NCBI GenBank assembly: GCA_963811595.1
Contig: CAWERW010000008.1
Coordinates: 374,965 to 438,964, forward strand
Direction of reading: 5' to 3'
Length of the DNA stretch: 64,000 bases
Source: an uncultured Solirubrobacteraceae bacterium
GTDB lineage: Bacteria; Actinomycetota; Thermoleophilia; Solirubrobacterales; Solirubrobacteraceae
Shown: positions 1,958-64,000 of the stretch, one piece after another
Position numbering within the stretch: position 1 is the stretch's first letter
How the letters are laid out: each line of letters starts with the position of its first letter
Notes under the pieces: generated by a model
Told to the model about the DNA's origin: nothing
What the model saw: only the letters and a program-made list of their open reading frames with translations
Database searches by the model: none
Made by a program: the position numbers and the translations under genes

Positions 1958-1985
1958 GCCGCTGACGCTATTAGGCTGACCTGTC

Positions 1986-2822
1986 GTGAACCGCGTCCTG
2001 CTCGGCGACAACCTCGAGCTGATGCGGGCCGAGCCGGATGCGAGCGTCCAGCTCGCCTACCTCGACCCGCCGTTCAACACCGGCCGCGCCCAGACCCGGC
2101 GCACGCTGGCGACGACCGCCGCGGCCGACGGCGCCGGCGACCGGACCGGCTTCGGCGGCCGCCGCTACACGACCGAGCTGCTCGAGTCGTCCTCCTACCG
2201 CGACGCGTTCGACGACTACCTCGGCTTCCTCGAGCCGCGCCTGCGCGAGGTGCGGCGGCTCCTGCACCCCACGGGCACGCTGTACTTCCACATCGACTGG
2301 CGCGAGGCGCACTACTGCAAGCTGCTGCTCGACGAGCTGTTCGGCCGCGAGTGCTTCCTCAACGAGCTGATCTGGGCCTACGACTACGGCGCCAAGCCGC
2401 GCCGCCGCTGGCCGCCCAAGCACGACACGATCCTCGTCTACGTCAAGCACCCGACCGACTACTTCTTCGACGCCGAGGCGGTCGACCGCGAGCCGTACAT
2501 GGCGCCCGGGCTCGTGACGCCCGAGAAGGCGGCGCGCGGCAAGCGCCCGACCGACGTCATGTGGCACACGATCGTCTCCCCGACCGGGCGCGAGAAGACC
2601 GGCTACCCGACCCAGAAGCCCGAGGGCCTGCTGCGGCGCTTCGTCCAGGCCTCGAGTCGTCCTGATGACATCTGCATGGATCCGTTCGCCGGCTCGGGCA
2701 CGCTGGGCGTGGCGGCCGCGAAGCTGGGGCGGCGCTTCCTGCTCATGGACGAGAATTCCGAGGCGGTCGCCATCGCGAACACCCGACTGAAGGAGCCCTC
2801 GTGGACTACAAGCTCGAGCTGA
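1986..2822 (+). CDS. site-specific DNA methyltransferase, beta-class N4/N6 amino-MTase (PF01555-like), orphan
   Basis: N-terminal motif IV LAYLDPPFNTG and C-terminal motif I DPFAGSGTLGVAA; this order is typical of beta-class MTases. GTG start lies 28 nt from the divergent priA start. No restriction-enzyme partner is visible. Confidence 0.85.
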   Translation: MNRVLLGDNLELMRAEPDASVQLAYLDPPFNTGRAQTRRTLATTAAADGAGDRTGFGGRRYTTELLESSSYRDAFDDYLGFLEPRLREVRRLLHPTGTLYFHIDWREAHYCKLLLDELFGRECFLNELIWAYDYGAKPRRRWPPKHDTILVYVKHPTDYFFDAEAVDREPYMAPGLVTPEKAARGKRPTDVMWHTIVSPTGREKTGYPTQKPEGLLRRFVQASSRPDDICMDPFAGSGTLGVAAAKLGRRFLLMDENSEAVAIANTRLKEPSWTTSSS

Positions 2823-3172
2823 TCGCCGTCCCCGTCTCGGACCCCGATCGCGCCAAGGCGTTCTACACGGAGCAGGCCGGCTTCAACGCCGACCACGACC
2901 ACCGCGTCAGCGACGACCTGCGCTTCATCCAGTGCACGCCGCCGGGTTCGGCATGCTCGATCTCGTTCGGCACCGGCCTCGGCGACGCGTCGCCGGGCTC
3001 GCTGCAGGGCCTGCAGCTCGTCGTGTCCGACATCGAGGCGGCCCACGCCGAGCTCTCCGGGCGGGGCGTCGAGGTGTCCGACGTCCAGGACTTCCCGTGG
3101 GGCCGGTTCGTGTTCTTCTCGGACCCCGACGGCAACGGCTGGGCCGTCCAGGAGCTCGTTCCGCCGGCGTAA
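2801..3172 (+). CDS. VOC / glyoxalase-bleomycin resistance family protein
   Basis: 123 aa with ..FFSDPDGNGWAVQE.., typical of the VOC fold. GTG start is preceded by AAGGAG 6 nt upstream. Overlaps the MTase 3' end by 22 nt. Confidence 0.8.
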   Translation: MDYKLELIAVPVSDPDRAKAFYTEQAGFNADHDHRVSDDLRFIQCTPPGSACSISFGTGLGDASPGSLQGLQLVVSDIEAAHAELSGRGVEVSDVQDFPWGRFVFFSDPDGNGWAVQELVPPA

Positions 3173-3217
3173 TTCGCGTCCAGGGGGGTTGAAAGCCCGC
3201 CGACTTGACGCGACTCT

Positions 3218-3835
3218 GTGCAGATGCCGGAGTGGCTTCGCAGCGAGAAGTTCCATTTCATCGCCTTCGCCCTGCTCATGGGCCTGGTGGTGGGCGGCCT
3301 CGTGACCTACGCCCTCGGCTTCTCGTCCTCGGAGCCGAGCCGCATCTCGGAGCGCTCCGACGCGGAGGCGATCGCCAGCGACCAGGCGGCGGCGACGCCG
3401 ACCGCCACGCCGGCCGCCAAGGCGAAGGCCAAGCCCAAGGCAAAGGTCAAGGTCAAGGCCGAGCGCGCCCGGCGCCCGGCCCGCGGCGGCGGCGGCGGCG
3501 GGAGCACCGCGGCCGCGCCGGCCGCGACGTCGACGCCGGAGTCGAGCGAGGAGGGCGACGCCCCCGCCACGCAGGCGCCCGCGCGCGCGGCCCCGCGGCG
3601 CCAGGCGTCGAGCCCGCGCCGTCTCGTCACCCAGAAGCGGACCACGATCCAGCCGCAGCGGCGACCCGCCAGGCCTCCGGCCTCCACGCCGGCGCCGACT
3701 CCCGCCCCCGCGCCGCCCCCGCCGCCGCAGTCCACGCCCGCCCCGCAGCCCGAGCCGTCGCAGCCTTCCCCCACGCGCCCGCGGCCCGACCGCCCGGGCG
3801 GCGATGACGACGATCCGGGCGACAACGACGATTAG
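3218..3835 (+). CDS. hypothetical membrane-anchored Ala/Pro/Lys-rich low-complexity protein
   Basis: One N-terminal TM segment (FIAFALLMGLVVGGLVTYALGF), then KAKAKPKAKVKVKA and PAPTPAPAPPPPP tracts. No recognisable domain. Confidence 0.5.
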   Translation: MQMPEWLRSEKFHFIAFALLMGLVVGGLVTYALGFSSSEPSRISERSDAEAIASDQAAATPTATPAAKAKAKPKAKVKVKAERARRPARGGGGGGSTAAAPAATSTPESSEEGDAPATQAPARAAPRRQASSPRRLVTQKRTTIQPQRRPARPPASTPAPTPAPAPPPPPQSTPAPQPEPSQPSPTRPRPDRPGGDDDDPGDNDD

Positions 3836-4847
3836 CGCGCGCGGCCCCGGCCGCGTCAACCTGATCGGCGAGCACACGGACTACAACGGCGGCCTCGCGC
3901 TGCCGTTCGCCATCGACCGCGGCGTGACGGTGACCGCCGAGCCGCTCGACGGCGACCGGATCGAGGCGACCGCGCTCGACCTCGGCGAGACCGACGCGTT
4001 CACGCTCTCCGCGCCGGAGCCGTCCGAGGGCTGGCGGGCGTTCGTGCGCGGCGCGGTGGCGGAGCTCGCGGCGACCGGCATCGAGCTCGCGCCCGCGCGG
4101 ATCGCCTTCGAGGGCGACGTGCCGCAGGGCTCGGGGCTCTCGTCCTCCGCTGCGCTCGAGACCGCGCTGTGCCTCGCGCTGCTCGGCCTCGCGGGCGCCG
4201 AGGAGCCCGACCGGCTCGAGCTCGCGAAGCTGTGCTCGCGCGTCGAGAACGAGTGGGTCGGCGCCCAGACGGGGCTGCTCGACCAGATCGCGTCGCTGCT
4301 CGGCGAGGAGGGCCACGCGCTGCGGATCGACTTCGCGACGCTCGCAATCGAGCGCGTGCCGCTCGACCTCGGCGACTGGCAGCTCGTGACCGCCGACTCG
4401 GGCGCCACCCACACGCACGCCGGGGGCGGCTACAACGAGCGCCGCGCGGAGTGCCGCGCGGCCGCCGAGGCGCTCGGCGTCGAGCACCTCAGCGCCGCCG
4501 ATCCCGAAGCGGCCGCGCGGCTGGGCGGCGCCGAGGGCCGGCGCGCGCGCCACGTGCTGAGCGAGAACCGGCGCGTCGACGCGACGGTGGCGGCGCTGCG
4601 CGCGGGCGACCTGGAGGCGGTGGGGCGGCTGCTCGACGAGTCGCACGCGAGCCTGCGCGATGACTTCGAGGCCTCGGTGCCCGAGGTCGAGGCGACCGTC
4701 GAGCGGCTCAAGCGCGCCGGAGCGGCGGGGGCGCGGATGATGGGCGGCGGCTTCGGCGGGGCGGTGCTGGCGCTGTTAGGACCCGGCGGCGCGCGACCCG
4801 ACGGCGTCATCCCCGTCGTCCCCGGACCCGCCGCGCGGCTCCTCTGA
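3804..4847 (+). CDS. galK: galactokinase
   Basis: Galactokinase signature GPGRVNLIGEHTDYNGG and the GHMP kinase motif GSGLSSSAAL. Confidence 0.85.
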   Translation: MTTIRATTTISARGPGRVNLIGEHTDYNGGLALPFAIDRGVTVTAEPLDGDRIEATALDLGETDAFTLSAPEPSEGWRAFVRGAVAELAATGIELAPARIAFEGDVPQGSGLSSSAALETALCLALLGLAGAEEPDRLELAKLCSRVENEWVGAQTGLLDQIASLLGEEGHALRIDFATLAIERVPLDLGDWQLVTADSGATHTHAGGGYNERRAECRAAAEALGVEHLSAADPEAAARLGGAEGRRARHVLSENRRVDATVAALRAGDLEAVGRLLDESHASLRDDFEASVPEVEATVERLKRAGAAGARMMGGGFGGAVLALLGPGGARPDGVIPVVPGPAARLL

Positions 4848-8110: not shown

Positions 8111-8114
<4 letters not shown>

Positions 8115-9625
8115 GGGATCTCGAAGAACAGCTCCGCGGTCGTGTCGTCCTCCTCACGCTGGATCACGGCGCTGGCGGCGTGGACCGGGCGAAGGTCCTC
8201 GGCGGTCAACCCGGTCTGCTCGCCGAGCGTGAGGAGCTGGCGTACGTCGAAGAAGCCTAGCGAGTCGGCCGTGGGCGACAACGCGGGCACCGCTGACCGA
8301 AAGGCCGGGGTTTCCAGCAGGCGGGGGCTGCCGCGGCCGAGGAACGCCTCGACGGCCTCGGGCGCGGTGGCGATCACGGCGGTGCCGCCGGCCACCGCGT
8401 AGGTGGGCGCGAAGCCGTCGGAGACCGGCAGCGTGAAGACCTCGGCGCCGGCGATGTCGCGGCCGCGGAAGATCAGCGGCGCGTCCGGGTCCTCGGCGAG
8501 CACGCGGGCCACCGGGTCCTGCAGGCGGGCGAGCACCTCGCGCACGCCCTTGGGGTCGCGGGTGCGCGCGGCGAGGGCGACGACCGGAGCGGGTTCGCCG
8601 GGGCTGATCCAGGCGGCGAAGCCGCCGTGCAGGCGCGCCAGCAGGTCGCGGTCGAGGTCGAGCGAGGCCTCCTCCGCCAGCGTGCTCCGCACGGCCTCGG
8701 CCGCCGCGGCGCCGCCGGCGCGCTCGATGGCCGCGACGACCGCCGCCGCCTCCGGCGCAGCGACGAGCGCGATCGCCTCGGCCGGCACGCGCGCGGCCAG
8801 CGCGCGCGCGCCGTCCGCCGGCCCGGCGTCGGCGGCGGTCCTGCCACCGGTGCCGACGCTGCGCACGCGCACGCTCAGGCCGTCCTCGCCACCACCGGCG
8901 GCGGCGCCCAGCGCGCGCAGGCGCTTGTGGCTGAGCAGGGCGGCCAGCGCGCCCGCCACGCCGCCGCCCGGCGCGGCGCCCAGCGCGCGCGGCGCGACGT
9001 AGACCTGCGCGGGCCGCTCGGCGCCGGCCAGCGCGCGCTCGAACACGTCGGACTCCGCGAGCGCCGGCGCGTCGTCCTCGGCGGCGTCGATCGAGCGCTG
9101 GACCGCGAGCTCGGGCCCGGCGACGAGGTAGCCGCGCACGAACGCCGCCGCGTTGGACCCGAAGCGCCGCACCACGGTGCCCTTGTAGCGCGAGCCCGGC
9201 CGCGCGCCCGCCACGCGCTGCAGCAGCGCCTCGGCCTTGGGCTCGTCGCGCACGCGGGCGAGCACGAGCGAGCCGAAGCGCCCGCCCCCGAGCTCGACGA
9301 GCGCGACCGCCGCCTCCTCCCCCAGCCACGGCCGCACGTCGCGGCGCACGTCGAACGCGCCCGGCGCCGGCGAGATCGCCTGCAGCGCGGCGTCGCGCAC
9401 CCGCAGGTAGCCCGGGATGCGCGGGGCGAGCCGGGCGAGCTCGCGCGCCTCCGGGTCGCCGGGGTCGGTGCTCAGGCGCGCGTAGGCGAGCGCGGACGCG
9501 GGCACGAGCTCGGCCGCCGCGCCGCCCGGGCCGGGGTCGGCGAGCGTGTCGCGCACCGCGACCGCGAGGATCGCCACCAGCAGCACCGCGGCGCCCGCCA
9601 GCACCGCCGCGGAGCTGCGCGTCAT
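8111..9625 (-). CDS. membrane-anchored hypothetical protein (DUF3352-like by memory); paralogue of 57403..58971
   Basis: N-terminal TM segment [19 protein letters not shown]. Shares VPA..Y...(40-60 aa)...D[IV].PWLGE.A with the lipoprotein at 57403. Coupled by ATGA overlaps to der (upstream) and metK (downstream). Confidence 0.6.
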
Positions 9626-10941
9626 TCCTCCCGCCGGCGCTGCTTGCGCTCCACGAAGTCGATCACGAGCGGGATGCCCTCGAGGGCGTAGCGGTCACGG
9701 AGGCGATTCTCGACGAAGTAGGCGTAGTCGCGCGTCAGTCGGTTGCGGTGGTTGACGTGGATCGAGAAGCGCGGCGGCCGGGTCTCGATCTGCGCGGCGT
9801 AGAACAGCTTCAGGCGCCGGCCCTGCTTCTGGGGCGTCTCCCGGCTCGCGACCAGGTCGCCGAGGAAGCGGTTGAGCTCGGGCGTCGGGATGCGGTGCGA
9901 CGCTCGCTCGGCCAGCGACAGCGCCTCGACGAGGATGCGGCTGATGTGCCGCCCGGTCTTCGCCGACGTCGTCAGCACCTTCGGCCGCAGGCGCAGCTTG
10001 CGGTTGACCCGCGCGCGCTCGTGGTCGAGGTCGAAGTCGTCGCCGCTCGTGAGGTCCCACTTGTTGAGCACGAGCGCGGTCGCGCAGCCCGCCTTCATCG
10101 CCATCTCTGCGATCCGCAGGTCCTGGGACGTGACGCCGTCGGTGGCGTCGCACACCACGAGCGCGACGTCGGCGCGCTCCGCCGCCCGCTGCGAGCGCAG
10201 CGACGTGTAGTACTCGACCGACTCGTTGACCTTCGCCGCGCGCCGGATGCCGGCCGTGTCGACCAGCAGCAGCCGCCGCCCGTCGACCTCGATCGGCGTG
10301 TCGATCGCGTCGCGCGTCGTGCCGGCGATGTCGGAGACGATCACGCGCTCGCGCCCGAGGAACGCGTTGACCAGCGACGACTTGCCGACGTTCGGGCGCC
10401 CGATCACCGCGAGCCGGACGATGTCCTCCTCGTCCTCGGGCTCGTCGCCCTCGGGCAGCAGCTCGACGAGGCGGTCGAGCAGGTCGCCCGTGCCGAGCCC
10501 CTGCACCGCCGACACCGCGAACGGCTCGCCGAGGCCGAGCCCGTGGAAGTCGTGCACGAGCCCGAAGTCGCGCGGCGAGTCGATCTTGTTGGCGACCAGC
10601 ACGACCGGCAGGCCGCCCTTGCGCAGCATCTCGGCGACCTCCTGGTCGCCGGCGCGGTAGCCCGCCCGCGCGTCGACGACGAGCAGCGCGACGTCGGCGT
10701 CGGAGAGCGCCTCGCGCACCTGGTCCTGGATCGACACCGCGAGCGGGTCGGAGTCCTCGAGGTCGACGCCGCCGGTGTCGATCAGCGCGAACTGGCGGCC
10801 GTTCCAGTCCGTCGCGAGCTCCTTGCGGTCGCGCGTGATGCCGGAGCGCTCGTGCACGACGGCCTCGCGCGACTGCGTGAGGCGGTTGACGAGCGAGGAC
10901 TTGCCGACGTTCGGATAGCCGACGACGGCGACCTTCCTCAC
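9622..10941 (-). CDS. der: ribosome-associated GTPase Der/EngA
   Basis: Two G domains ([14 protein letters not shown] and [14 protein letters not shown]) plus a KH-like C-terminus. I place the start at GTG 10941 (AAGGA upstream, GTGA overlap with the cmk stop). The 129 Arg-rich codons upstream in the track ORF are spurious. Confidence 0.9.
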
Positions 10942-11558
10942 GTCGGGAGTTCCTTGGCCTCGACCGCGAGCGTGACGATCTGCTCGACGACCTGGTCGAG
11001 CGAGAGCCCGGTGGTGTCGACCGGCACCGCATCGGGGGCGGCCACGAGCGGCGCGTGCTCGCGGTTGCGGTCGCGCTCGTCGCGCAGCGCCTGGTCGCGC
11101 GCCACGACGTCGGGGTCGGTGCCGAGCTCCGCGGCGCGGCGGCGCGCGCGCTCGGCCGGGTCGGCGGTGAGGAACACCTTGACCTCGGCGTCCGGCGCGA
11201 CGACGGTCCCGATGTCGCGGCCCTCGGCGACCCAGTCGCCCTCGGCGAGGATGCGCTGCTGCTGCGCCACGAGCGCCTCGCGCACCGCCGGGTCGGAGGA
11301 CACGCGCGAGGCGGCCTCGGACACCCACGGCTCGCGGATCCGCTCGGTGACGTCCTCGCCGTCGAGCAGCACGCGCTCGCCGAGCTCGAGCTGCGCGGCG
11401 CGCGCGATCGCGGCGGCGTCGGCGCCGCCGTTCGCGGCGACGGCGATCGCCCGGTACATCGCGCCCGTGTCGAGATAGGTGAAGCCGAGCCGCTCCGCGG
11501 CGGCGCGGGCGACCGTCGACTTGCCGGCCCCGGCGGGACCGTCGATGGCGATGACCAT
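10938..11558 (-). CDS. cmk: cytidylate kinase
   Basis: [37 protein letters not shown]. Start trimmed to ATG 11558. Confidence 0.9.
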
Positions 11559-37427: not shown

Positions 37428-37874
37428 CTACCACCCGTTGCCGTTGCTGTCCGGCGTCGCGCGGCAACCGCCCTTGCCCGCGTTGGTGCAGGTGCGGTGC
37501 ACGTCGCCGACGGCGTCGAGCTCGATCGTGAAGGTCCCGCCGCCCCCGCTGGCGCGGGAATCGACCGAGACCGCGAAGGTCTTGTCGGTGCCACTCGCGG
37601 TGAGGCCGGGCGCGTCGGCGAGCGACGGCTCGAGATCGATCAGCGTGGCGGCGTCCGTGTCGTAGGTCTGGCGATCGGTGTTGTACGTCTCGAGCGCGAC
37701 GCGGGCGTTGCGCACGGCGGTCTTCGCCTCGGCGTCCTGCCCCTTGGTGCGCTGGTTGAGGAACGCGGGCAGCGCGATCGCAGCGAGCATCCCGATGATC
37801 ATGATCACCACGAGGAGCTCGACGAGCGTGAATCCGCGGGTCTCGCGGAAACGGTTGGGGAGGCGGAACGCCAT
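37428..37874 (-). CDS. type IV pilin-like / pseudopilin protein (prepilin-type N-terminal cleavage/methylation domain)
   Basis: MAFRLPNRFRETRG|FTLVELLVVIMIIGMLAAIALPAF is a class III signal peptide. GAGGAG lies 4 nt upstream of ATG 37874. The stop is only 22 nt upstream of the murC start. Confidence 0.8.
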   Translation of the reverse strand: MAFRLPNRFRETRGFTLVELLVVIMIIGMLAAIALPAFLNQRTKGQDAEAKTAVRNARVALETYNTDRQTYDTDAATLIDLEPSLADAPGLTASGTDKTFAVSVDSRASGGGGTFTIELDAVGDVHRTCTNAGKGGCRATPDSNGNGW

Positions 37875-43197: not shown

Positions 43198-44166
43198 TCA
43201 GCTCGTCAGCGACTGCTGATACAGCGTGAAGCCGATCGCGCTGCAGACAGCGGCGACGATCCAGAAGCGCAGGATGATCTTCGTCTCCGACCACGCGCGG
43301 AGCTCGAAGTGGTGGTGGATCGGCGCCATCAGGAACACGCGCTTGCGGAAGGCCTGGAACGAAGCGACCTGGATCAGCACCGACAGCGCCTCGATCACGA
43401 AGATGCCGCCGAGGATGATCAGCAGCACCTCGGTCTTGGTCATCACCGCGAGCCCCGCGATCGCGCCGCCCAGCCCCAGCGACCCGGTGTCGCCCATGAA
43501 GATCGAGGCCGGGAACGAGTTGAACCAGAGGAAGCCCACGCACGCGCCGACCAGGCACGAGGCGACCAGGGCGAGGTCGAACTGGCGCGTCGTGAACGTG
43601 ATCGCGATGTAGGCGAGCAGCACGATCGCCGCGCAGCCGGCCGCCAGCCCGTCGAGCCCGTCGGTCAGGTTGACCGCCGAGGTCGTGCCCGCCAGCACGA
43701 GGTAGATGAAGACCGGATACAGGTAGCCGAGGTCGATGCGGGCGTCGATGATGCGCAGATCGACGGTGTCGGGCAGCTCCGCCCAGCGCGTCGCGACGAG
43801 CCACAGCCCGACCGCGATCGCGACCGTGGCGACGAGCTTGGTGCGCGCGCGCAGGCCCAGCGACCGCCGCCTGATGATCTTCGTGAAGTCGTCGGCGAAG
43901 CCGAGCAGCGCACAGGCGAGGGCGACCCCGAAGACGCCGATCGCGCGCGGCGTGAACTCGGTCAGCAGCAGGAACGGGACCGCGATCGCGGTGAAGATGA
44001 TGATCCCGCCCATCGTCGGCGTGCCCGCCTTCGCGTGGTGCTCCTGCGGCCCCTCCTCGCGGATGTGCTGGCCGAACTCGCGCTCGCGCAGGAACGAGAT
44101 GAACTGCGGCGACAGGAAGATGCACATCAGCAGGGACGCCGTCCCCGCGATCAGGACCTCGCCCAT
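43198..44166 (-). CDS. mraY: phospho-N-acetylmuramoyl-pentapeptide transferase
   Basis: ..GTPTMGGIIIF..ADDFTKI..NLTDGLDGLA..FMGDTGSLGLGG... Confidence 0.9.
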   Translation of the reverse strand: MGEVLIAGTASLLMCIFLSPQFISFLREREFGQHIREEGPQEHHAKAGTPTMGGIIIFTAIAVPFLLLTEFTPRAIGVFGVALACALLGFADDFTKIIRRRSLGLRARTKLVATVAIAVGLWLVATRWAELPDTVDLRIIDARIDLGYLYPVFIYLVLAGTTSAVNLTDGLDGLAAGCAAIVLLAYIAITFTTRQFDLALVASCLVGACVGFLWFNSFPASIFMGDTGSLGLGGAIAGLAVMTKTEVLLIILGGIFVIEALSVLIQVASFQAFRKRVFLMAPIHHHFELRAWSETKIILRFWIVAAVCSAIGFTLYQQSLTS

Positions 44167-46973
44167 CAGCCCGCGGCCTGCAGCGCTTCGGTGACGACCT
44201 CGAGCCCGACGCCGCGCGAGCCCTTGACGAGCACGACGTCGCCGGCCATCACGAGCTCCGGCAGCAGCGCGGCCGCCTCCTGCGCGTCGAGCACGGCGTG
44301 CGACTCGCCGTCGAACGCGTCGAGCATCGCGGCCGCGCGCGGGCCGACGGTGACGAGCAGGTCGACCCCCGCCGTCGCGGCGTAGGCGCCGATCTCGCGG
44401 TGGTGCTCGCGCTCGGCAGGGCCGAGCTCGAGCATGTCGCCGAGCACCGCGACGCGGCGGCCCTCGGCATCGTGCGAGGCGAGATCATCAAGGGCGGCGC
44501 GCATGGACAGCGGGTTGGCGTTGTAGCAGTCGTTGATGACGACAGCCCCGATCCCGAGCGCGACGCGCTCCCCGCGCATCGACGAGAAGCGGACGTCGAT
44601 CTTGCCGCTCGGATGGACGCCGATGGCGTGCGCGGCGGCCAGGGCGGCGAGCGAGTTGAGCAGGTTGTGCTCCTGGCTGAACGGCAGCTCGAGCTCGACC
44701 CGCTCGCCCTGCGCGATCACGACGTGGTGGGTCGGCAGCGCATCGGGCACCACGCCGTACTTCAGCGACGAGCCCTCGAAGTGGACGTCGCCGCCGGGGC
44801 CGAAGGTGACGATCTCGAGGTCGTCGCGCAGCCACGGCTCGAGCAGCGGCTCGTCGGAGGGCACCACGCCGGTGCTGCCCGCGCGCATGCCGTCGAGCAG
44901 CTCCGCCTTGGCGGCGGCGACGCCCTCGAGCGAGCCGAGCTGCTCGAGGTGGACGGGGCCGATGTTCGTGATCACGCCGACGTCGGGCTCGCAGATCGCG
45001 GCGAGCTCGGCGATCTGCCCCGCCCCGCGCATCGCGAGCTCGAGCACGAGCACCTCGGTGCCCCACGGCGCCGCCAGCACCTCGAGCGGGAGCCCGATCT
45101 CGGTGTTGAAGTTCTCGCGCGAGGCCGCGACCTGGCGGTGCGGCGCGATCATCGCCGTGATCAGGTCCTTCGTCGACGTCTTGCCGACCGAGCCGGTGAC
45201 CGCGATCACGAACGCGGCGAGGTCCTGCCGCCAGCCGCGGGCGAGCGCGCCGAGCGCCGGCACCGGCGTCTCCGAGGCGATCACCGCGCCGCCGTCGCCC
45301 GCGAGCAGCTCGTCGACCCACTGCGGCGTCACCACCGCGCCCCAGGCGCCCGCGTCGAGCGCCTCTGCCGCGAACGCCCCGCCGTCGACGTTCTCGCCCG
45401 GGAGGCCGAAGAAGAGGTCGCCCGGCTGGACGCCGCGCGAGTCGATCACCGCGCGCGCGGGCCCGCCGGCGGCGCGCCCGCCGGCCTGCTCGCGCACGAG
45501 CTGCGCGCCGGCGGTCCCCGCCACGCGCTGGGCGCTCCAGTGCTTCATGCCTGTGCCTTGCGCCGCCGCCTGCAGCGCCTCGCGCGCCACGGTCACGTCA
45601 TCGAACGGCTCCTTGCGGCCGCCCTCGAACTCCTGCCCCTGCTCGTGGCCCTTGCCCGCGATCACGACGATGTCGCCTTCGCGCGCCATCGTCATCGCGC
45701 GGCCGATCGCGACCCGCCGGTCGACCTCGAGCTCGACCGCGCCCTCGCGGACGCCGGCCGCGACCTCGAGCACGATCGCCTCGGGGTCCTCGGAGCGCGG
45801 GTTGTCGGAGGTGATGATCGCGTGGTCGGCCAGCCGTGCCCCGATCTCCCCCATCAGCGGGCGCTTGCCCTGGTCGCGGTCCCCGCCCGCGCCGAACACG
45901 ACGATCACACGGCCCTCGGCGACCGCCCGCGCGGAGCGCAGGACGTTCTCGAGCGCCCCCGGCTTGTGCGCGTAGTCGACGACGACGGCGAACGGCTGGC
46001 CCTCGTCGACCGGCTCGAAGCGCCCCGGCACCTTCGGCGGCTCGGTGAGGGTGCCGAGCAAGGCGTCGATGTCGGCGCCCAATGCGCGCGCGGCCGCCCA
46101 CGCGCCCAGGGCGTTGAGGACGTTGAAGCGACCGGGCAAGCCGAGGCGAACAGACCATTCGCCTTCCTCACTGCGCAGTTTGAAGTCCGAGCCCGCCGCG
46201 TCGGAGCGGAGGTCGACGGCCCGGAGATCTCCGCGCTCGATCCCGAACGTCTGCGTGCCGGGGAACTCGCTCGCCAGCCGGCGCCCGTACTCGTCATCCG
46301 CGCAGGCGATCCGCACCTCCGGGCCGGTCTCGAACAGCTTGCGCTTGGCCAGGAAGTAGCTCTCCATGTCCGGGTGGAAGTCGAGGTGGTCCTGGCTGAG
46401 GTTCGTGAACACGGCGGCCGCGCAGTGGATCCCCTCCGCGCGCCGCAGCTCCAGCGCGTGCGAGGAGATCTCCATCGCGCACGCTGCGTCGCCGCCGTCG
46501 AGCATCTCCCGGAACGTGCGCTGGAGGTCGATCGCCTCCGGCGTCGTGCGCTGGACCGGGCGCGCCTCGCCGCCCACGATCGACGTGACGGTGCCGAGCA
46601 GCCCGGTCTGGATCCCCGCCGCCTCGAGCATCGCCCGAGCGAGCCACGCCGTCGTCGTCTTGCCGCTCGTGCCGGTGATGCCGACCACGCGCAGCTCGGC
46701 GGTCGGGTCGCCGTAGAAGCGCGCGGCGGCGTGGGCCATGGCGGCGCGCATGTCCTCGACCTGGACCTCGGGGACGCCGAGGCCGAGCTCGTGGCAGACG
46801 ACGAGCGCGGCCGCCCCGCGCGCGACCGCGTCAGGCGCGAAGTCATGGCCGTCGCGCGTGAAGCCGGGGACGCAGAAGAACAGCGTGCCTGGCTCCACCG
46901 CGCGGTTGTCGAAGGCGAGGCCGGTGATCTCGACGTCGTCCGGGCCGTCGCCGAGCAGCTCGCGCAGCGTCAT
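44166..46973 (-). CDS. murE-murF: fused MurE (UDP-MurNAc-L-Ala-D-Glu:meso-DAP ligase; 45549..46973) and MurF (UDP-MurNAc-tripeptide:D-Ala-D-Ala ligase; 44166..45548) in one ORF
   Basis: MurE part: ..VGITGTSGKTTTAWL..DYAHKPGAL..DNPRSEDP... MurF part: ..IAVTGSVGKTSTKDL..NDCYNANP... The junction ..REALQAAAQGTG-MKHWSAQRV.. has no stop codon. The other 677 upstream codons of the 1612-aa track ORF are antisense artefact. Confidence 0.85.
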   Translation of the reverse strand: MTLRELLGDGPDDVEITGLAFDNRAVEPGTLFFCVPGFTRDGHDFAPDAVARGAAALVVCHELGLGVPEVQVEDMRAAMAHAAARFYGDPTAELRVVGITGTSGKTTTAWLARAMLEAAGIQTGLLGTVTSIVGGEARPVQRTTPEAIDLQRTFREMLDGGDAACAMEISSHALELRRAEGIHCAAAVFTNLSQDHLDFHPDMESYFLAKRKLFETGPEVRIACADDEYGRRLASEFPGTQTFGIERGDLRAVDLRSDAAGSDFKLRSEEGEWSVRLGLPGRFNVLNALGAWAAARALGADIDALLGTLTEPPKVPGRFEPVDEGQPFAVVVDYAHKPGALENVLRSARAVAEGRVIVVFGAGGDRDQGKRPLMGEIGARLADHAIITSDNPRSEDPEAIVLEVAAGVREGAVELEVDRRVAIGRAMTMAREGDIVVIAGKGHEQGQEFEGGRKEPFDDVTVAREALQAAAQGTGMKHWSAQRVAGTAGAQLVREQAGGRAAGGPARAVIDSRGVQPGDLFFGLPGENVDGGAFAAEALDAGAWGAVVTPQWVDELLAGDGGAVIASETPVPALGALARGWRQDLAAFVIAVTGSVGKTSTKDLITAMIAPHRQVAASRENFNTEIGLPLEVLAAPWGTEVLVLELAMRGAGQIAELAAICEPDVGVITNIGPVHLEQLGSLEGVAAAKAELLDGMRAGSTGVVPSDEPLLEPWLRDDLEIVTFGPGGDVHFEGSSLKYGVVPDALPTHHVVIAQGERVELELPFSQEHNLLNSLAALAAAHAIGVHPSGKIDVRFSSMRGERVALGIGAVVINDCYNANPLSMRAALDDLASHDAEGRRVAVLGDMLELGPAEREHHREIGAYAATAGVDLLVTVGPRAAAMLDAFDGESHAVLDAQEAAALLPELVMAGDVVLVKGSRGVGLEVVTEALQAAG

Positions 46974-57402: not shown

Positions 57403-58971
57403 ATGCCTCGCTCCCGCCTCCTGGCCCTCCCCTGCCTGCTCCTCCTCGCCGTCCTGATCGCCGCGTGCGGCGGCTCGGGCGCCGGCGCCGCCGACGCCGA
57501 TCCCGCCACGGCGGTCCCGGCCGGCACGTCGATCTACCTCGAGGGCGTCGTGCGGCCCGAGGGCGACCAGCGCGACGACGTCCTCGACGCCGCCGGCAAG
57601 GTCCTGCGCACCGACGACCCGGAGCGCAAGGTGCGTGAGCTGCTCGACAAGGCGCTGAAGGAGTCCGACGGTCCCGCCGTCTCCTACGAGAAGGACATCG
57701 CGCCGTGGCTGGGCGAGAAGGCGGGCGTCTGGGTCGCGGGCGTCGACAAGCCGGATCCCGGCTACGTCGTGCTCGTCGCCGCCAAGGACACCGAGAAGGC
57801 GCAGGAGGCGATCGACAAGGGCGTCAAGGCCGACGGCGGCAAGGTCACGCAGCGCTCCTACGAGGACGTCGACTACCAGGTCGACGACGAGGGCGTGGCG
57901 GCCGGCATCGTCGGCGACTTCTTCACGGTCGGCACCGAGGCGGAGTTCAAGCGCACCGTCAAGGCCGCGGACGGCGACACGCTCGCCGACGCCGCGAAGT
58001 ACAAGGAGACCGTCGATGAGCTCGAGGAGGAGCGGCTCGGCCACTTCTACGTCGACCTCAAGCCGTTCATCGAGCAGGCGCTGAAGTCCGACCCCGAGGC
58101 GGCCGGCCAGCTCGAGCAGATCCGCGCGATCTTCCCCATCGACAAGCTCGAGCCGCTCGCCGGCGCCATGCTCGCCAACGGCGACCGGCTCGCGTTCGAC
58201 ACGATCATGCGCGGGCCCGGCGTGAAGTCGCTGCAGGCGTTCGGCCCGCTGTTCGGCACCGGCGAGACGCCGCTCGTGTCCGAGCTGCCCGGCGACGCGT
58301 GGTTCGCCTACGGCGCCCCGAACCTCGGCCCGACGCTGAAGTCCCTGTTCACGCGCGTGGCCGGCGCGCTGGGCGGCGCCGCGGCCGCACAGCAGCTCCA
58401 GCAGCAGTACGGCCTCAACCTCGAGCGCGACGTGTTCGGCTGGATCGGCGACGTCGCGATCTACGCGCGCGGGAACGACAAGGCGAGCCTCGAGGGCGGC
58501 ATCGTCATCAAGGCCACCAACCCCGACAACATGAAGGGCGCGTTCGGCAAGCTCGTCGGGCTGCTGCAGAGCGAGGGCGGCCAGCGCATCAGCCCGGTCA
58601 AGGTCGACGGGGCGACCGCCGCGTTCAAGACCGGCTCCACCGACCTCGGCAAGCCCGCGATCATCGCGCGCTCCGACGACCGCGTGGTGATCGCCGTCGG
58701 GGAGGCCGCCGCGGCGGACGGGCTCGCGCCGGCGGAGAAGCTCGGCGACTCCGAGCTCTACGCGTCCGCCAAGGGCGTGCTCGGCGACGACTTCGAGCCG
58801 ACGTTCCTGATGTCGATGCCCGACCTCGTCGCGGCCGTCGACGCCACCGGCGGCGCCGACGCGGAGTTCCAGCAGGCCAAGCCCTACCTCGAGGCGTTCA
58901 GCGTGATCGCCAGCGGCGGCAAGCTCGAGGACGACGAGCTGGAGTCGCGCCTCGCGGCCGGGTTGAAGTAG
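57403..58971 (+). CDS. lipoprotein, DUF3352-like (paralogue of 8111..9625)
   Basis: MPRSRLLALPCLLLLAVLIAAC|GGSG lipobox. ..AVPAGTSIYLEG.. and ..KDIAPWLGEKAGVWV.. are shared with the other copy. Start trimmed to ATG 57403. Confidence 0.7.
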   Translation: MPRSRLLALPCLLLLAVLIAACGGSGAGAADADPATAVPAGTSIYLEGVVRPEGDQRDDVLDAAGKVLRTDDPERKVRELLDKALKESDGPAVSYEKDIAPWLGEKAGVWVAGVDKPDPGYVVLVAAKDTEKAQEAIDKGVKADGGKVTQRSYEDVDYQVDDEGVAAGIVGDFFTVGTEAEFKRTVKAADGDTLADAAKYKETVDELEEERLGHFYVDLKPFIEQALKSDPEAAGQLEQIRAIFPIDKLEPLAGAMLANGDRLAFDTIMRGPGVKSLQAFGPLFGTGETPLVSELPGDAWFAYGAPNLGPTLKSLFTRVAGALGGAAAAQQLQQQYGLNLERDVFGWIGDVAIYARGNDKASLEGGIVIKATNPDNMKGAFGKLVGLLQSEGGQRISPVKVDGATAAFKTGSTDLGKPAIIARSDDRVVIAVGEAAAADGLAPAEKLGDSELYASAKGVLGDDFEPTFLMSMPDLVAAVDATGGADAEFQQAKPYLEAFSVIASGGKLEDDELESRLAAGLK

Positions 58972-58994
58972 GCGCGCGCTTGCGGCTGCCGGTG

Positions 58995-60062
58995 ATGCCG
59001 CCGGTGGCGCCGATGCTGGCCAAGGTCGCGGCCGGCATCCCGCCGGGGCAGCTCTACGAGCCCAAGTGGGACGGCTTCCGCTCGATCGTCTTCCGCGACG
59101 GCGACGAGGTCGAGATCGGCAGCCGCAACACGCGACCGATGGCGCGCTACTTCCCCGAGGTCGTGGCGGCCGCGAAGGCGAGCCTGCCGGAGCGCTGCGT
59201 GGTCGACGGCGAGATCGTGATCGCCTCGCCCGAGGGGCGGCTGGACTTCTGGGCGCTGCAGCAGCGTCTGCACCCGGCGGCGAGCCGCGTCGACCTGCTC
59301 GCGGCGCAGACACCGGCCAGCCTCGTCGCCTTCGACCTGCTCGCGCTCGGGGACGAGGACCTCACCGGCCGGCCGTTCGCCGAGCGCCGCGCGGCGCTCG
59401 AAGGTGCGCTGGCCGGCGCGCAGCCGCCCGTGCACCTCACGCCGCTGACCGACGACCCGGGCCTGGCGGGCGAGTGGTTCGAGCGCTTCGAGGGCGCCGG
59501 CCTCGACGGGATCATCGCCAAGGCGCCCGAGCTGACCTACCAGCCGGACAAGCGCGTGATGACGAAGGTCAAGCACGTGCGCACCGCCGACTGCGTGCTG
59601 GCCGGCTACCGGGTGCACAAGTCAGGGCCGGACGCGATCGGCTCGCTCCTGCTCGGGCTCTACGACGACGGCAGCTACCCGGTGTCGCAGTGGAGCGGCG
59701 CGTCCGGCGGGCTGCATTCGGTCGGCGTCGTCGGGGCGTTCCCGATGGCGAGGCGGCGCGAGCTGTTCGCCGAGCTGCAGCCGCTCGTCTGCGACTTCGA
59801 GGACCATCCGTGGAGCTGGGCGCGCGACCACATCCCCGCGCAGGCGGCGATGGGCAGCCGCTGGAACCCCGGCCGGTCGCTGTCGTTCACCCCGCTGCGG
59901 CCCGAGCGCGTGCTCGAGGTCCGCTACGACCACATGGAGGGCTCGCGCTTCCGCCACCCGCCACAGTTCGTGCGCTGGCGCCCCGACCGCGATCCCGAGT
60001 CCTGCGGCTACGCCCAGCTCGAGCGGCCGGTGGACCTCGACGTGGCCCAGATCCTCGGTTAG
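58995..60062 (+). CDS. ATP-dependent DNA ligase (stand-alone LigC-like adenylation + OB domains)
   Basis: PMLAK.., motif I YEPKWDGFR, ..VDGEIV.., ..LVAFDLL.., ..LDGIIAK.., ..TKVK... Start trimmed to ATG 58995. No Ku gene in the window. Confidence 0.85.
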   Translation: MPPVAPMLAKVAAGIPPGQLYEPKWDGFRSIVFRDGDEVEIGSRNTRPMARYFPEVVAAAKASLPERCVVDGEIVIASPEGRLDFWALQQRLHPAASRVDLLAAQTPASLVAFDLLALGDEDLTGRPFAERRAALEGALAGAQPPVHLTPLTDDPGLAGEWFERFEGAGLDGIIAKAPELTYQPDKRVMTKVKHVRTADCVLAGYRVHKSGPDAIGSLLLGLYDDGSYPVSQWSGASGGLHSVGVVGAFPMARRRELFAELQPLVCDFEDHPWSWARDHIPAQAAMGSRWNPGRSLSFTPLRPERVLEVRYDHMEGSRFRHPPQFVRWRPDRDPESCGYAQLERPVDLDVAQILG

Positions 60063-60071
60063 GGTCGGCGC

Positions 60072-61247
60072 GTGGCCGTCGCCACGCATGAGGCAGTGCC
60101 CGCGCGGGAGTGCGCGCAGCCCGCTCCCGCTCCCGCGGCCCGCGTCCAGGGCACAGCGGCGAGCCTGCTCGCGCTGCAGCGCACCGCCGGCAACCGCGCC
60201 GTGAACGCGATGCTCGGCGTCGCGCGCCAGGCGGCGGCGGCGCCCAAGCCGCGGCGGCTCCAGCGCCAGCCCGCGCACACGCCGACGCTCAGCGCGTGCT
60301 CGATCCGCTTCCACGTCAACTCGACGCGCGTGATCAGCACGCAGGAGCGGGACGCGTGCGTGGACCAGGCACGCGCCTACGTCTCCGCCGGCGGCCAGCG
60401 CAGCATCACCGCGCACGGCTACGCGAGCGAGGAGGGCGACCCGGAGCGCAACCGCGCCCTCGCCCGCCGGCGCGCGGAGGCCATCCGCGACCTGCTCGTC
60501 CAGCGCGGCGTGCCCGCCTCCGCGGCGACTCCGCAGGGCCACGGCGCCGACACGACCTATCCCGACCGGCCCTCCAACCGCCGCGTCGAGATCGCGCTCG
60601 CCGAGCAGATCGACTTCCCTGACGAGACGATCGAGGTGCCGCGCACCAAGTGCGGCCCGGACGTCACCCAGCAGGTCTCGGACGCGATCACGCTCACGCG
60701 CACCTCGTTCGCCGGCTGGTCCTCCGACCAGAAGGACGAGGCGTGCGAGGAGCTGCGCAGCGCCGACCACGGCGGGATCGCCTGGGACATCGTCGAGCTG
60801 CACAACAACGGCTGGATCCTCAACTACCGGCCGATGTGCGCGACGCAGGGCGCGACGCCACCGTGCGGCTCGACGGTCGAGGTCGCCGACCAGTGCTACT
60901 ACGCCGGCTCGGCCAACTACGTGATCTTCGGGACCATGTGCCGGCTCTGCAAGGACCACTTCTACGCGCAGGGCCGCGCCGGCTCGATGCCCGGCTACAC
61001 CGGCTGGATGGACTTCACCGAGGAGTCGATGACCGACCTCATCGACCTCTACAAGTCGAGCAGCGCGAACGTCGGCCCGTCCAAGGCGTGGGCGATCGCC
61101 GGCCGCGACGGCTGGCCCAACGGCGGCACGCCGCCGCCCGGCGACCGCGCGGGCTGCGCGCCCGCCTGCCCCGATCCGTACACCGGCTCGGCGTTCCGGG
61201 TGAACTGGTACCCGCGGATGTGGCACACCGGCGAAGTCGACCGCTGA
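60072..61247 (+). CDS. hypothetical effector-like protein: LQRTAGNRAV leader motif + OmpA/MotB-like PG-binding domain + Cys-rich C-terminal domain of unknown function
   Basis: SLLALQRTAGNRAVNAMLG ... PRRLQRQP; ITAHGYASEEGDPERNRALARRRAEAIRDLL..NRRVEIAL; C-terminal KCGPDVT..ELHNNGW..MCATQGATPPCGSTVEVADQCYY..CRLCKDHF... No signal peptide or TM segment. Confidence 0.7.
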   Translation: MAVATHEAVPARECAQPAPAPAARVQGTAASLLALQRTAGNRAVNAMLGVARQAAAAPKPRRLQRQPAHTPTLSACSIRFHVNSTRVISTQERDACVDQARAYVSAGGQRSITAHGYASEEGDPERNRALARRRAEAIRDLLVQRGVPASAATPQGHGADTTYPDRPSNRRVEIALAEQIDFPDETIEVPRTKCGPDVTQQVSDAITLTRTSFAGWSSDQKDEACEELRSADHGGIAWDIVELHNNGWILNYRPMCATQGATPPCGSTVEVADQCYYAGSANYVIFGTMCRLCKDHFYAQGRAGSMPGYTGWMDFTEESMTDLIDLYKSSSANVGPSKAWAIAGRDGWPNGGTPPPGDRAGCAPACPDPYTGSAFRVNWYPRMWHTGEVDR

Positions 61248-63108: not shown

Positions 63109-64000
63109 CTCGATCGAGCGCGTCGTCGTGCTCGGCAACGGGATCGCGGGCGTGACCGCCGCCGACCACGTGCGTCGTCGTCACCCCGAGTGCCGCGTCG
63201 ACCTCGTGGCCGACGAGCCGCACCCGCTCTACAACCGCATGGGCATCAACCGCCTGATCTACGGCCGCTCGGCGATGGCGGGGCTCTACCTCAACCCCGA
63301 CGCCTGGTACGACGAGCGCCGGATCGAGACGTGGCTGAACACGCGCGCCGTCGCGATCGACCGCGGCACGAGCGAGGTCGAGCTCGGCACCGGCGAGCGG
63401 CTCGGCTACGACCGGCTGATCCTCGCGCTGGGCTCGAGCGCGATGGTGCCGCGGATCGACGGCTTCGGCGGCCGCGGCACGTTCGTGGTCCGCAGCGCCG
63501 AGGACGCGCTCTCGATCCGCGCGTTCGCGCAGCGCGAGTGGTGCCGCGAGGCGCTGATCGCGGGCGGCGGCCTGCTCGGGCTCGAGGCCGGCTACGCGCT
63601 GCACAAGCTCGGCCTGCACGCGTCGATCCTCGAGCGCTCCGACCGGTTGCTGCGGCGCCAGCTCGACGGGCGCGCGTCGCAGTACCTGCAGCGCTACCTC
63701 GAGGGCCTGGGCATGGGCATCGTCACGCGCGCGGAGACCGCCGCGGCGCTGGGCGACGAGCGGCTGAGCGAGGTGCTGCTGCGCGACGGCCGCGCGCTGC
63801 CCGCCGACCTGCTGCTCGTGTGCGCGGGCATCACGCCCAACGTGACGCTCGCGCGCGAGGCCGGGCTCGAGGTCGGCCGCGGCGTCGCAGTCGACGACAT
63901 CATGCGCACGAGCGACCCGCGGATCTTCGCGGCGGGCGACGTCGCCGAGCACCGCGGGCGCGTGCACGGGCTGTGGCCGGCGGCGGTCGAGCAGGCCGAG
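63094..64000 (+). CDS. NAD(P)/FAD-dependent pyridine nucleotide-disulfide oxidoreductase (nitrite-reductase/rubredoxin-reductase-like); the 3' end runs off the window and the 5' end is frame-broken
   Basis: The next frame from about 63110 reads SIERVVVLGNGIAGVTAADHV..YDRLILALGSSAMVP..ALIAGGGLLGLEAGYAL..FAAGDVAEH... The only sensible ATG (63094) is in the preceding frame, which is the same frame as the upstream ORF. Confidence 0.75.
   Translation, partial: MSLRPLDRARRRARQRDRGRDRRRPRASSSPRVPRRPRGRRAAPALQPHGHQPPDLRPLGDGGALPQPRRLVRRAPDRDVAEHARRRDRPRHERGRARHRRAARLRPADPRAGLERDGAADRRLRRPRHVRGPQRRGRALDPRVRAARVVPRGADRGRRPARARGRLRAAQARPARVDPRALRPVAAAPARRARVAVPAALPRGPGHGHRHARGDRRGAGRRAAERGAAARRPRAARRPAARVRGHHAQRDARARGRARGRPRRRSRRHHAHERPADLRGGRRRRAPRARARAVAGGGRAGR

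Follow-up and report, generated by a model that had tools for sequence, protein, structure and literature searches.

A cargo-like leader and an unannotated cysteine-rich domain in a Solirubrobacteraceae protein: a candidate orphan toxin associated with contractile injection systems

The stretch of DNA analyzed here (the window) comprises 64,000 nucleotides of contig CAWERW010000008.1 from an uncultured Solirubrobacteraceae bacterium. Among its housekeeping genes is a gene for a 391-residue protein that consists of a leader with the motif LQRTAGNRA, an OmpA-like domain and a Cys-rich C-terminal domain (CTD), which we call the CGPDVT domain. The question raised by this locus is what a protein with the leader of an injected toxin might do where no injection machinery is encoded. 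An earlier note, made from the letters of the sequence, proposed an orphan effector directed at the cell wall. The reading that we favor, with moderate confidence, is that the gene encodes an orphan polymorphic toxin associated with contractile injection systems (CISs) but lacking the DUF4157 domain. Its leader would load it into a CIS encoded elsewhere, and its disulfide-stabilized CTD, guided by the OmpA-like domain, would act on peptidoglycan.

The gene is functional, fast-evolving, vertically inherited and under purifying selection. The open reading frame (ORF) was delimited correctly in the earlier note: according to the ORF listing and the translation, it begins, with a GTG codon, 9 nt past the DNA-ligase stop at 60062. 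The GC content at its third codon positions (GC3) is 0.97, as in bona fide genes, in a window with 73.6% GC. The frame is intact in relatives whose proteins are 94% (P0001, locus L001) and 69% identical (P0004, locus L043). The ratio of nonsynonymous to synonymous substitution rates (dN/dS) is 0.31 for the 94% pair and 0.56 for the 69% pair; it is below 1 in each domain, and relatively high (0.39-0.75) in the leader. All CTD residues that are invariant in the family are kept in the window protein, as seen in the alignment.

The CTD (207 residues) matches nothing in Pfam (E<=1), NCBIfam or PADLOC, and nothing in PDB by sequence or profile. An AlphaFold2 (AF2) model of the domain, based on an 88-sequence alignment, has a predicted local distance difference test (pLDDT) score of 93.7 and a predicted template-modeling score of 0.91, and is mostly helical with one small hairpin. 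Foldseek searches with this model returned nothing in PDB (best E 2.9, template-modeling (TM) score <=0.21) or BFVD, and in a positive control with the full-length model the OmpA fold was readily matched. By 'new fold' we mean here that Foldseek detects no relative of the CTD among solved structures. That the last ~200 residues belong to no nameable family, as first suggested, is therefore borne out by profile searches and structure comparison.

The CTD family is large. An exhaustive phmmer search at E<=1e-3 yields 620 clusters at 50% identity, distributed over more than 10 phyla plus archaea. The domain is nearly always at the C-terminus of its protein; the exceptions belong to a distant subfamily, in which it is N-terminal and followed by LysM. 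Two distant members (P0324 and P0310) are stand-alone genes. Eight Cys residues are invariant across 223 members (positions 194, 225, 256, 265, 275, 293, 362 and 366), whereas Cys290 is dispensable, being M, F or W in some members according to a co-loss analysis. Near-universal polar residues are Asp239, Asn282, Tyr283, Lys328 and Arg359, and W238 and Y327 are also near-universal. The even number of invariant Cys residues, together with fusions of the CTD to Sec signals and thiol-oxidoreductase modules, points to four structural disulfides and to action outside the cytoplasm.

Homologues of the whole protein connect it to injected toxins. A full-protein search gave 87 homologues, five of which (P0001-P0005, 63-94% identical) have the short architecture of the window protein, and in 64 of the 87 a PF13699 domain (DUF4157, or eCIS_core) is located upstream of the OmpA-CTD unit or of the CTD. 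DUF4157 marks toxins of extracellular CISs (eCISs) (PMC8213781; PMC11297309). The earlier note had linked the leader of the window protein to this type, but Pfam at E<=1 reports only OmpA, no HExxH is present, and a local hidden Markov model (HMM) trained on 68 DUF4157 cores matches none of the six frames of the window. By these searches, the window protein is related to DUF4157 toxins without being of the DUF4157 type itself.

One homologue, P0010, which is 66% identical over the OmpA-like domain and CTD, is encoded within a CIS operon, with the AAA ATPase gene on one side and CIS_tube/baseplate genes on the other. The gene order of this operon is sheath, gp19 tube, Pvc16_N, AAA ATPase, three eCIS_core genes (of which P0010 is the first), CIS_tube, Phage_base_V and gp25. 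When one genome per GTDB species was scanned for the CTD, 34 loci were found in more than 10 phyla, with a nearest match of 57% identity, and CIS genes were detected there by iterated HMMs built from the CIS proteins of locus L002. At least one CIS structural gene other than the AAA ATPase is within 10 kb of the CTD gene in 19 of these 34 loci, and nine have a nearly full set. The cultured Rhodanobacter sp. KK11 and Luteibacter sp. OK325 carry the CTD inside full CIS loci; in two further cultured organisms it is beside a single baseplate-type gene (Frankia sp. Cas4) or beside a CIS-type AAA ATPase only (Chryseobacterium defluvii), and Methanoperedens is also among the 34. All CIS-adjacent CTD copies with a complete gene have DUF4157.

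DUF4157 is one of many delivery partners of the CTD. Others are RHS 'DPxGL' tips (P0210, P0214, P0302), Sec signal peptides, a planctomycete-specific leader, membrane anchors, and a membrane module composed of MauE, thioredoxin and Cys-rich segments. The CTD thus occurs on several unrelated trafficking modules, as is expected of a polymorphic toxin domain. In one 14-kb stretch of an uncultured Actinomycetes metagenome-assembled genome (73% GC), three paralogous CTD genes without DUF4157 are found (L041:2-1312, 1913-4402 and 9593-11473), which we assume to share the MauE-thioredoxin-Cys-rich-CTD architecture of P0177, P0179 and P0219. Each is followed by a gene for a secreted protein of ~230 residues. 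These three secreted proteins are homologous, and Pfam identified RTX (HemolysinCabind) repeats in the one that was searched.

The CTD is also fused to peptidoglycan-binding modules, namely OmpA (41 of the 87 homologues), LysM (six) and PG_binding_1 (two). Because these are three independent kinds of partner, the cell wall is the probable target, and the original guess of a cell-wall-targeting effector gains support. The shortest leader-only relative, P0187 (L049:2207-3813), has its leader directly on the CTD, and a Peptidase_M14 gene is found 21 nt upstream of it. Murein-peptide amidases are among the bacterial representatives of Peptidase_M14, so this neighbor may be another hint of involvement with peptidoglycan.

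In loci L006/L015, L013, L018, L022, L025, L030 and L036, the CTD gene is followed by a small conserved gene whose start is at the CTD stop codon or overlaps it. The encoded family is found in six phyla, and has a core of ~110 residues, a C-terminus of the form ...FEELYI...V(F/Y)FDLN and no Pfam match; three copies have an N-terminal transmembrane helix. On this evidence it looks like a candidate immunity family for the CTD. An HMM of the family finds nothing in the window at E<=0.1, so the window gene does not have the downstream immunity gene typical of polymorphic toxins.

The leader of the window protein is predicted to be disordered. Residues 31-49 read SLLALQRTAGNRAVNAMLG. In the full-length AF2 model, the pLDDT of residues 1-72 is 29-38, except for a short helix over the motif (residues 30-40). 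The highest 19-residue Kyte-Doolittle mean in the protein is 0.74, and hence there is no signal peptide or transmembrane helix, in agreement with the earlier note. The region is homologous to the N-terminal regions of DUF4157-bearing relatives. The pattern [LIVMF]Q[RK]xxGNx[AGV] has a single match in the six frames of the window, which is the target gene. The motif is kept in the orthologues at 69-94% identity, and it is present at residues 8-64 in 20 of 222 members of the CTD family. In the six-frame ORFs of the first 42 related loci (903 k residues), 12 matches were found versus ~0.8 expected by our own estimate; 11 of the 12 are near the start of the ORF, and eight are ~170 residues upstream of the HExxHxxQ of DUF4157. 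A text search of the literature for the leader and CTD motifs as strings gave no relevant paper.

Long homologues, P0006, P0010 and P0035 among them, have a '...L(Q/R)RQPAP' linker after DUF4157, and the linker PRRLQRQP of the window protein aligns with it. Moreover, P0003 and P0004 keep, at the linker position, a CPGRCSCGG Cys cluster that also occurs in DUF4157 N-terminal regions. Because of these two features, the window form looks like the long form from which the DUF4157 block was removed and the leader was kept.

We define the leader group operationally as proteins with an N-terminal [LIVMF]Q[RK]xxGNx[AGV] less than ~100 residues from the start, a disordered leader, variable C-termini and linkage to CISs. 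The window protein belongs to this group, for which CIS linkage is seen in the group as a whole and not at the target gene. The high-GC form of the leader (ALQRxxGNR[A/V]) was turned into a degenerate DNA pattern, and a scan of JGI metagenomes with it gave at least 120 loci. Among the matches listed, every pattern match lies in an ORF, and 83 of 122 motifs are at most 100 residues from the upstream stop. Sheath, tube, Pvc16_N, AAA or baseplate genes are beside the leader ORF on 12 of 120 listed fragments, most of which are 1-7 kb. The background expectation for such co-occurrence is ~1e-4 by our own estimate, which starts from the report that 1.9% of genomes have eCISs (PMC8213781). Pfam searches of 84 of the listed leader ORFs matched eCIS_core (six ORFs), PG_binding_1 (four), T6SS_HCP (three), OmpA (three), Peptidase_M15_4 (three) and Transglut_prok (two), with single matches to ribonuclease, EndoU, Aspzincin_M35, sulfatase and phosphodiesterase; for most ORFs there was no match.

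The varied C-termini and the CIS-adjacent fragments imply that the leader marks a polymorphic set of effectors that is genetically tied to CISs. Since the same motif precedes the HExxH of DUF4157 and its high-GC form is enriched beside CIS genes, the link of the leader to DUF4157/eCIS cargo that the earlier note proposed is supported. The leader-only architecture is the rule within the leader-bearing set, in that 78 of the 84 listed ORFs have no eCIS_core.

Three further observations concern leader-bearing proteins. The three ALQRxxGNR-leader proteins with a T6SS_HCP (Hcp tube) domain match it with a best E of 4.6e-22 (alignment A5, 84 ORFs from L052-L171), and such a leader is odd for a tube-like protein. 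A small and highly conserved leader-bearing protein adjoins Pvc16_N, AAA and sheath genes in high-GC CIS loci; its C-terminal end is ...ALQRAAGNRAARRVLARWxKHPDPEQKGVMVPDxSAxEYxRFNPPKNE, and it looks like a core component of the CIS cluster more than a variable cargo. In Candidatus Methanoperedens (L016:4428-11806 and L017:4748-12650), four leader genes per locus occupy ~8 kb on one strand. Their leaders are near-identical over ~85 residues (LQRTIGNQA, then PGDxYEQEADRVAEQV), their C-terminal domains differ, and two of the genes have no DUF4157; L016 adjoins CIS genes for AAA, Pvc16_N, sheath and tube.

The OmpA-like domain, which the earlier note placed in the middle of the protein as an OmpA/MotB-type domain, is confirmed by two methods. 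Pfam OmpA (PF00691) matches residues 80-161 with E 4.3e-10 and 40.2 bits, above the gathering cut-off of 27.2, and the pLDDT exceeds 90 over the domain. With the full-length model, Foldseek finds ~100 OmpA-like peptidoglycan-binding structures (OprF, Pal, OmpA, TagL), all through residues 76-184, at E values down to 3e-8 (3e-8 to 1e-5 for the kinds named) and with target-normalized TM scores of 0.74-0.85 for OprF, Pal and OmpA; PDB entries 5u1h, 4g4w, 5n2c, 1oap and 3td5 align over ~110 columns with root-mean-square deviations of 1.6-2.9. NCBIfam gives only partial Pal and OmpA-type matches for the whole protein. In OmpA-like domains, diaminopimelate is bound by a conserved Asp and Arg (Asp271 and Arg286 in Acinetobacter baumannii OmpA). 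The window protein reads GYASEEGDPERNRALARRRA where the consensus is GHTDxxGxxxYNxxLSxRRA, and in this alignment by eye the Arg is kept and Ser replaces the Asp.

How does the window protein compare with known systems? Genomic criteria for eCIS-associated toxins (EATs) are a position within ~10 genes of an eCIS operon, and DUF4157 in the protein or within two genes (PMC8213781; PMC11297309). By Pfam and HMM searches, no CIS structural gene is present in the 60 kb upstream or the 2.7 kb downstream of the target, or within +/-10 kb in the relative L001. DUF4157 is absent from the protein and from the genes within two positions, the neighbors being those for the DNA ligase, a DUF3352 protein, a cyclic nucleotide monophosphate (cNMP)-binding protein and a membrane redox protein. 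The window protein does share with EATs a disordered, non-Sec N-terminal region: pLDDT is below 50 over residues 1-72, there is no hydrophobic segment, and the motif is that of leaders on DUF4157 cargo. DUF4157 EATs, for example EAT14 (DUF4157-LysM-transglutaminase), resemble it further in having an optional peptidoglycan-binding module and a variable C-terminal toxin domain. Direct homologues of the window protein (66% over the OmpA-like domain and CTD) are DUF4157 proteins in CIS operons, and LQRxxGNxA is common to both. In contrast, the window protein lacks DUF4157 and is not near a CIS operon, and its CTD is not among annotated toxin domains.

In the AlgoCIS of Algoriphagus machipongonensis, the disordered N-terminal domain of the cargo is required for loading, and DUF4157 and the CTD are dispensable (preprint 10.64898/2026.05.27.728243). 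Cargo consisting of a leader and an effector domain is therefore mechanistically plausible. Cgo1 and Cgo2, which are cargo of AlgoCIS (PMC8894135), have the same order of parts as the window protein, which is a disordered N-terminal domain, (DUF4157) and an effector CTD. Unlike the window protein, they are encoded inside the CIS cluster, and the likeness noted here is one of architecture.

Two other classes of protein are comparable. Effectors and lysins that target peptidoglycan pair a peptidoglycan-binding module with a catalytic domain, as in amidase effectors of type VI secretion systems (T6SSs) and in phage endolysins. The CTD is likewise combined with OmpA-like, LysM and PG_binding_1 modules, and other leader proteins carry Peptidase_M15_4 and PG_binding_1, but the CTD has no similarity in sequence or fold to solved peptidoglycan hydrolases (lysozyme/SLT, CHAP/NlpC, amidase_2/3, M15, M23). 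Polymorphic toxins of the Rhs, T6SS and contact-dependent inhibition types are said to carry C-terminal toxin cassettes with adjacent immunity genes (reportedly described by Zhang, Aravind et al. in 2012). As in those systems, one CTD family is found on many unrelated delivery modules, with a small conserved downstream gene in seven loci. The window copy differs in having no immunity-like neighbor or recognizable delivery machine nearby, and the CTD matches no Pfam Tox/Ntox domain. What appears to be new is a CIS-associated type of polymorphic toxin in which an undescribed toxin domain is combined with a leader-only layout.

If the favored reading holds, the protein would be synthesized in the cytoplasm, with neither a Sec nor a Tat signal. 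Its leader of ~72 residues with LQRxxGNxA would be recognized by the loading apparatus, an AAA+ ATPase of the Pvc15/Alg15 type, of a phage-tail-like CIS whose genes are elsewhere in the genome, and the protein would be packed in the CIS tube and expelled upon contraction. Outside the cytoplasm, the eight invariant Cys residues of the CTD would oxidize to form four disulfides and the OmpA-like module would dock on peptidoglycan. The CTD would then cleave or modify the cell wall, perhaps with Asp239, Asn282/Tyr283 and Lys328 as catalytic residues. For the window protein, CIS delivery is something that we infer rather than observe, because the locus has no DUF4157, CIS neighbor or immunity-like gene, the gene is conserved vertically beside the dcw cluster, and it is paired with the cNMP gene.

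The genes around the target form a housekeeping neighborhood. Pfam searches of 40 window genes found housekeeping functions throughout (PriA, MetK, Der, Cmk, aro genes, ScpAB, TrpRS, glycine cleavage, GGDEF-HD), and the window contains a full dcw cluster from FtsZ to MraZ. Identity to the 69% relative is 98% for MraZ, 93% for the cNMP-binding protein, 91% for RsmH, 75% for the DUF3352 protein and 69% for the target. The ATP-dependent DNA ligase upstream occurs in the window and in the 94% relative L001 but not at the orthologous locus of the 69% relative (L043/L044), and it therefore has no functional tie to the target. Its absence in L043 is a clean gene-sized indel, which leaves DUF3352 and target genes only 39 nt apart (L043:2929-2969).

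The cNMP gene starts 7 nt past the target stop, and the pair is kept in L001 and in L043/L044. The earlier note had suggested that the cNMP-binding protein might neutralize the effector. In the two relatives its identity is 99% and 93%, compared with 94% and 69% for the target. As it is so much more conserved, and has no match to the HMM of the immunity-like family, it is unlikely to be a co-evolving immunity factor. A PADLOC match of its cNMP domain to PycTIR-type effectors was rejected as evidence for defense, because only the cNMP-binding fold is shared. The product of a long ORF directly after the cNMP gene (61717-c.63130, + strand) is a membrane protein of the multi-pass kind that contains Cys-rich motifs and, at its C-terminus, a CxxGxCGxC...C segment like that of 2Fe-2S ferredoxins; the next ORF is at 63128-64000 (+). 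At the corresponding place, L001 has a single gene of 713 codons, followed by a Rubredoxin_C-type oxidoreductase gene. Possibly it is this redox module, and not the toxin, that the cNMP-binding protein regulates.

Other features of the window include two DUF3352 paralogues, at 8111-9625 (- strand) and 57403-58971 (+); the second heads the target operon and occupies the same place in both relatives. Within the dcw cluster, the 935-residue protein encoded at 44166-46973 (-) has two complete sets of Mur ligase domains and is apparently a MurE-MurF fusion, and between murG and murC a 148-residue protein (37428-37874, -) has a type IV pilin-like N_methyl motif (E 9e-8). Coordinates of the target gene, its parts and related features are given in Table 1.

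Table 1. Positions of the target gene, its domains, its neighbors and related genes (in the window unless a locus label is given)
Feature	Position	Strand	Basis
ATP-dependent DNA ligase, upstream	58980..60062, start codon approximate	+	Pfam DNA_ligase_A_M, DNA_ligase_A_C
Target gene, 391 aa (leader, OmpA-like domain, Cys-rich CTD)	60072..61247, stop codon included	+	ORF and translation
Disordered N-terminal leader, residues 1-72	60072..60287	+	AF2 pLDDT, hydropathy, homology
Leader motif LQRTAGNRA, residues 35-43	60174..60200	+	Read from sequence
PRRLQRQP linker, residues 60-67	60249..60272	+	Alignment with DUF4157 long forms
OmpA-like peptidoglycan-binding domain, residues 76-184	60297..60623	+	Pfam PF00691, AF2, Foldseek
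Cys-rich CTD (CGPDVT domain), residues 185-391, predicted toxin/enzyme module	60624..61244	+	No library match; AF2
cNMP-binding-domain protein, 153 aa	61255..61716	+	Pfam cNMP_binding, E 9.7e-14
Immunity-like genes, downstream of CTD gene	L006:11193-11561, L013:8767-9228, L018:3566-3970, L022:10616-11017, L025:792-1256, L030:10524-10982, L036:10558-11046		
Small leader-bearing CIS-locus protein	L056:5168-5794, L059:790-1320, L065:3368-3880, L082:4646-5272, L130:2869-3183, L146:1538-3358		

Several observations weigh against injection of the window protein by a CIS and against its action on peptidoglycan. No CIS gene, DUF4157 core or immunity-like gene is found in the window, either by Pfam on the 40 genes or by HMMs in all six frames. 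Nor is any of these found within +/-10 kb in the 94% relative L001 or on the 5.9-kb contig of L043, so the orphan status first noted for the window extends to both relatives over these distances. The 94% relative has the same gene order as the window (mraZ / DUF3352 - ligase - target - cNMP), and so has the 69% relative apart from the missing ligase. Among the genome loci, no CTD copy without DUF4157 is a confirmed CIS neighbor, the one candidate being L012, where the ORF is short and the gene possibly broken, and the leader-only CTD proteins P0187 and P0160 are not beside CIS genes on their short contigs. The loading data for AlgoCIS come from a preprint on a Bacteroidota system, and loading sequences are not conserved between systems (10.64898/2026.05.27.728243). 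In the OmpA-like domain, the Asp of GHTD is Ser in the window protein (GYAS, then Glu-Glu) in the by-eye alignment with the consensus; with Ser at the canonical Asp, binding of peptidoglycan is not assured. Finally, two of the immunity-like proteins have no signal peptide or transmembrane helix, which fits poorly with purely periplasmic action.

Some of these observations would be explained if the target were a domesticated, endogenous cell-wall protein beside the dcw cluster, for example an autolysin, a remodeling enzyme or an executioner of regulated death, that is never delivered to other cells. Strict synteny by mraZ/dcw in three genomes at 69-94% identity with no mobile-element signature, the operon-like pairing with a highly conserved cNMP-binding protein, the missing immunity-like gene, purifying selection and the peptidoglycan-binding module all suit such a role, and CISs of Streptomyces are cytoplasmic and act in development and death (PMC11126660; 10.1101/2025.11.06.686954). 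However, the protein has no export signal, which a wall-directed enzyme would be expected to carry, and retention under selection of a CIS-type leader motif would be unexpected if the motif were useless. The target also evolves faster than every neighbor (69% versus 75-98% identity), which is more typical of effectors, and the wider family behaves as a polymorphic toxin; we therefore consider domestication unlikely. A more improbable explanation is that the toxin is freed by lysis, vesicles or an unrecognized exporter, and that its leader has another use, for instance as a pro-peptide, in inhibition or in the binding of a partner. The CTD is indeed agnostic as to delivery, given its Sec signals, RHS tips, planctomycete leader and membrane anchors; 108 of the 120 listed leader loci, on mostly short contigs, have no CIS gene, and none is near the target. 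In contrast, 10% of the listed short leader fragments carry CIS genes, far above the ~1e-4 that we estimate, the small leader-bearing protein is a conserved part of high-GC CIS loci, and the leader occupies the place of the experimentally defined loading sequence in DUF4157 cargo.

The earlier note also suggested that the CTD is a papain- or NlpC/P60-like thiol hydrolase in which the Cys of KCGPD (Cys194) and the His of ELHNNGW (His244) form a catalytic dyad. Cys194 is found in 209 of the 210 rows that have no gap there and immediately precedes the first long helix, His is the commonest residue at position 244 (82% of 223 members), and peptidoglycan-binding partners would suit an amidase or endopeptidase. 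However, position 244 is Y, F, N, S or G in the other 18% of members; in the whole distant subfamily with LysM/PG_binding_1, as recovered with a CTD-only profile, it is Y/F, and GDR is replaced by GNR. The alignment contains no other invariant His, and the confident model has no papain-, NlpC- or CHAP-like match in Foldseek. The even number of Cys residues and the extracytoplasmic partners favor four disulfides with no free thiol, and hence a structural role for all eight, which makes the dyad very improbable. It is scarcely credible that the gene is a decaying remnant, deprived of both DUF4157 and its machine and about to turn into a pseudogene. Although DUF4157 has apparently been deleted from between the leader and the linker, neither a CIS nor an immunity gene is nearby, and the leader has a relatively high dN/dS, the frame is intact in three diverged genomes. 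Moreover, every domain has dN/dS below 1, the invariant CTD residues are kept, GC3 is that of real genes, and the leader-only state is that of the majority of the listed ORFs. The favored reading, an orphan CIS-associated toxin loaded by its leader, thus retains from the earlier note the leader link, the OmpA-like domain, the unannotated CTD, the cell-wall target and the orphan status, and parts with DUF4157 membership, the dyad and immunity by the cNMP-binding protein.

A broader claim is possible, and we put it forward only tentatively because we doubt that it holds in full. The leader motif is seen in Methanoperedens, Terriglobales and high-GC soil bacteria, and LQRxxGNxA might be a cargo tag for CISs across archaea and bacteria that is independent of DUF4157. 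This claim further includes a disulfide-rich anti-peptidoglycan toxin domain of new fold with a new immunity family, and possibly self-lysis by way of a cytoplasmic CIS. Regulated self-lysis of this kind is conceivable because the gene is fixed by the cell-division cluster with a cNMP-binding partner.

Recognition of cargo by CISs is poorly understood, and in current work loading sequences are regarded as disordered and lacking conservation. A short conserved motif that is enriched beside CIS genes and is found on leaders whether or not DUF4157 follows would allow dispersed CIS effectors to be found and cargo tags to be designed. The CTD appears to be a new candidate anti-cell-wall activity, represented by a sizeable family with a confident model that has no fold relative, three kinds of peptidoglycan-binding partner and a candidate immunity family, and its cultured carriers make tests in culture possible. 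If the broader claim is true, leader-only proteins scattered over genomes would constitute a large and unrecognized pool of effectors.

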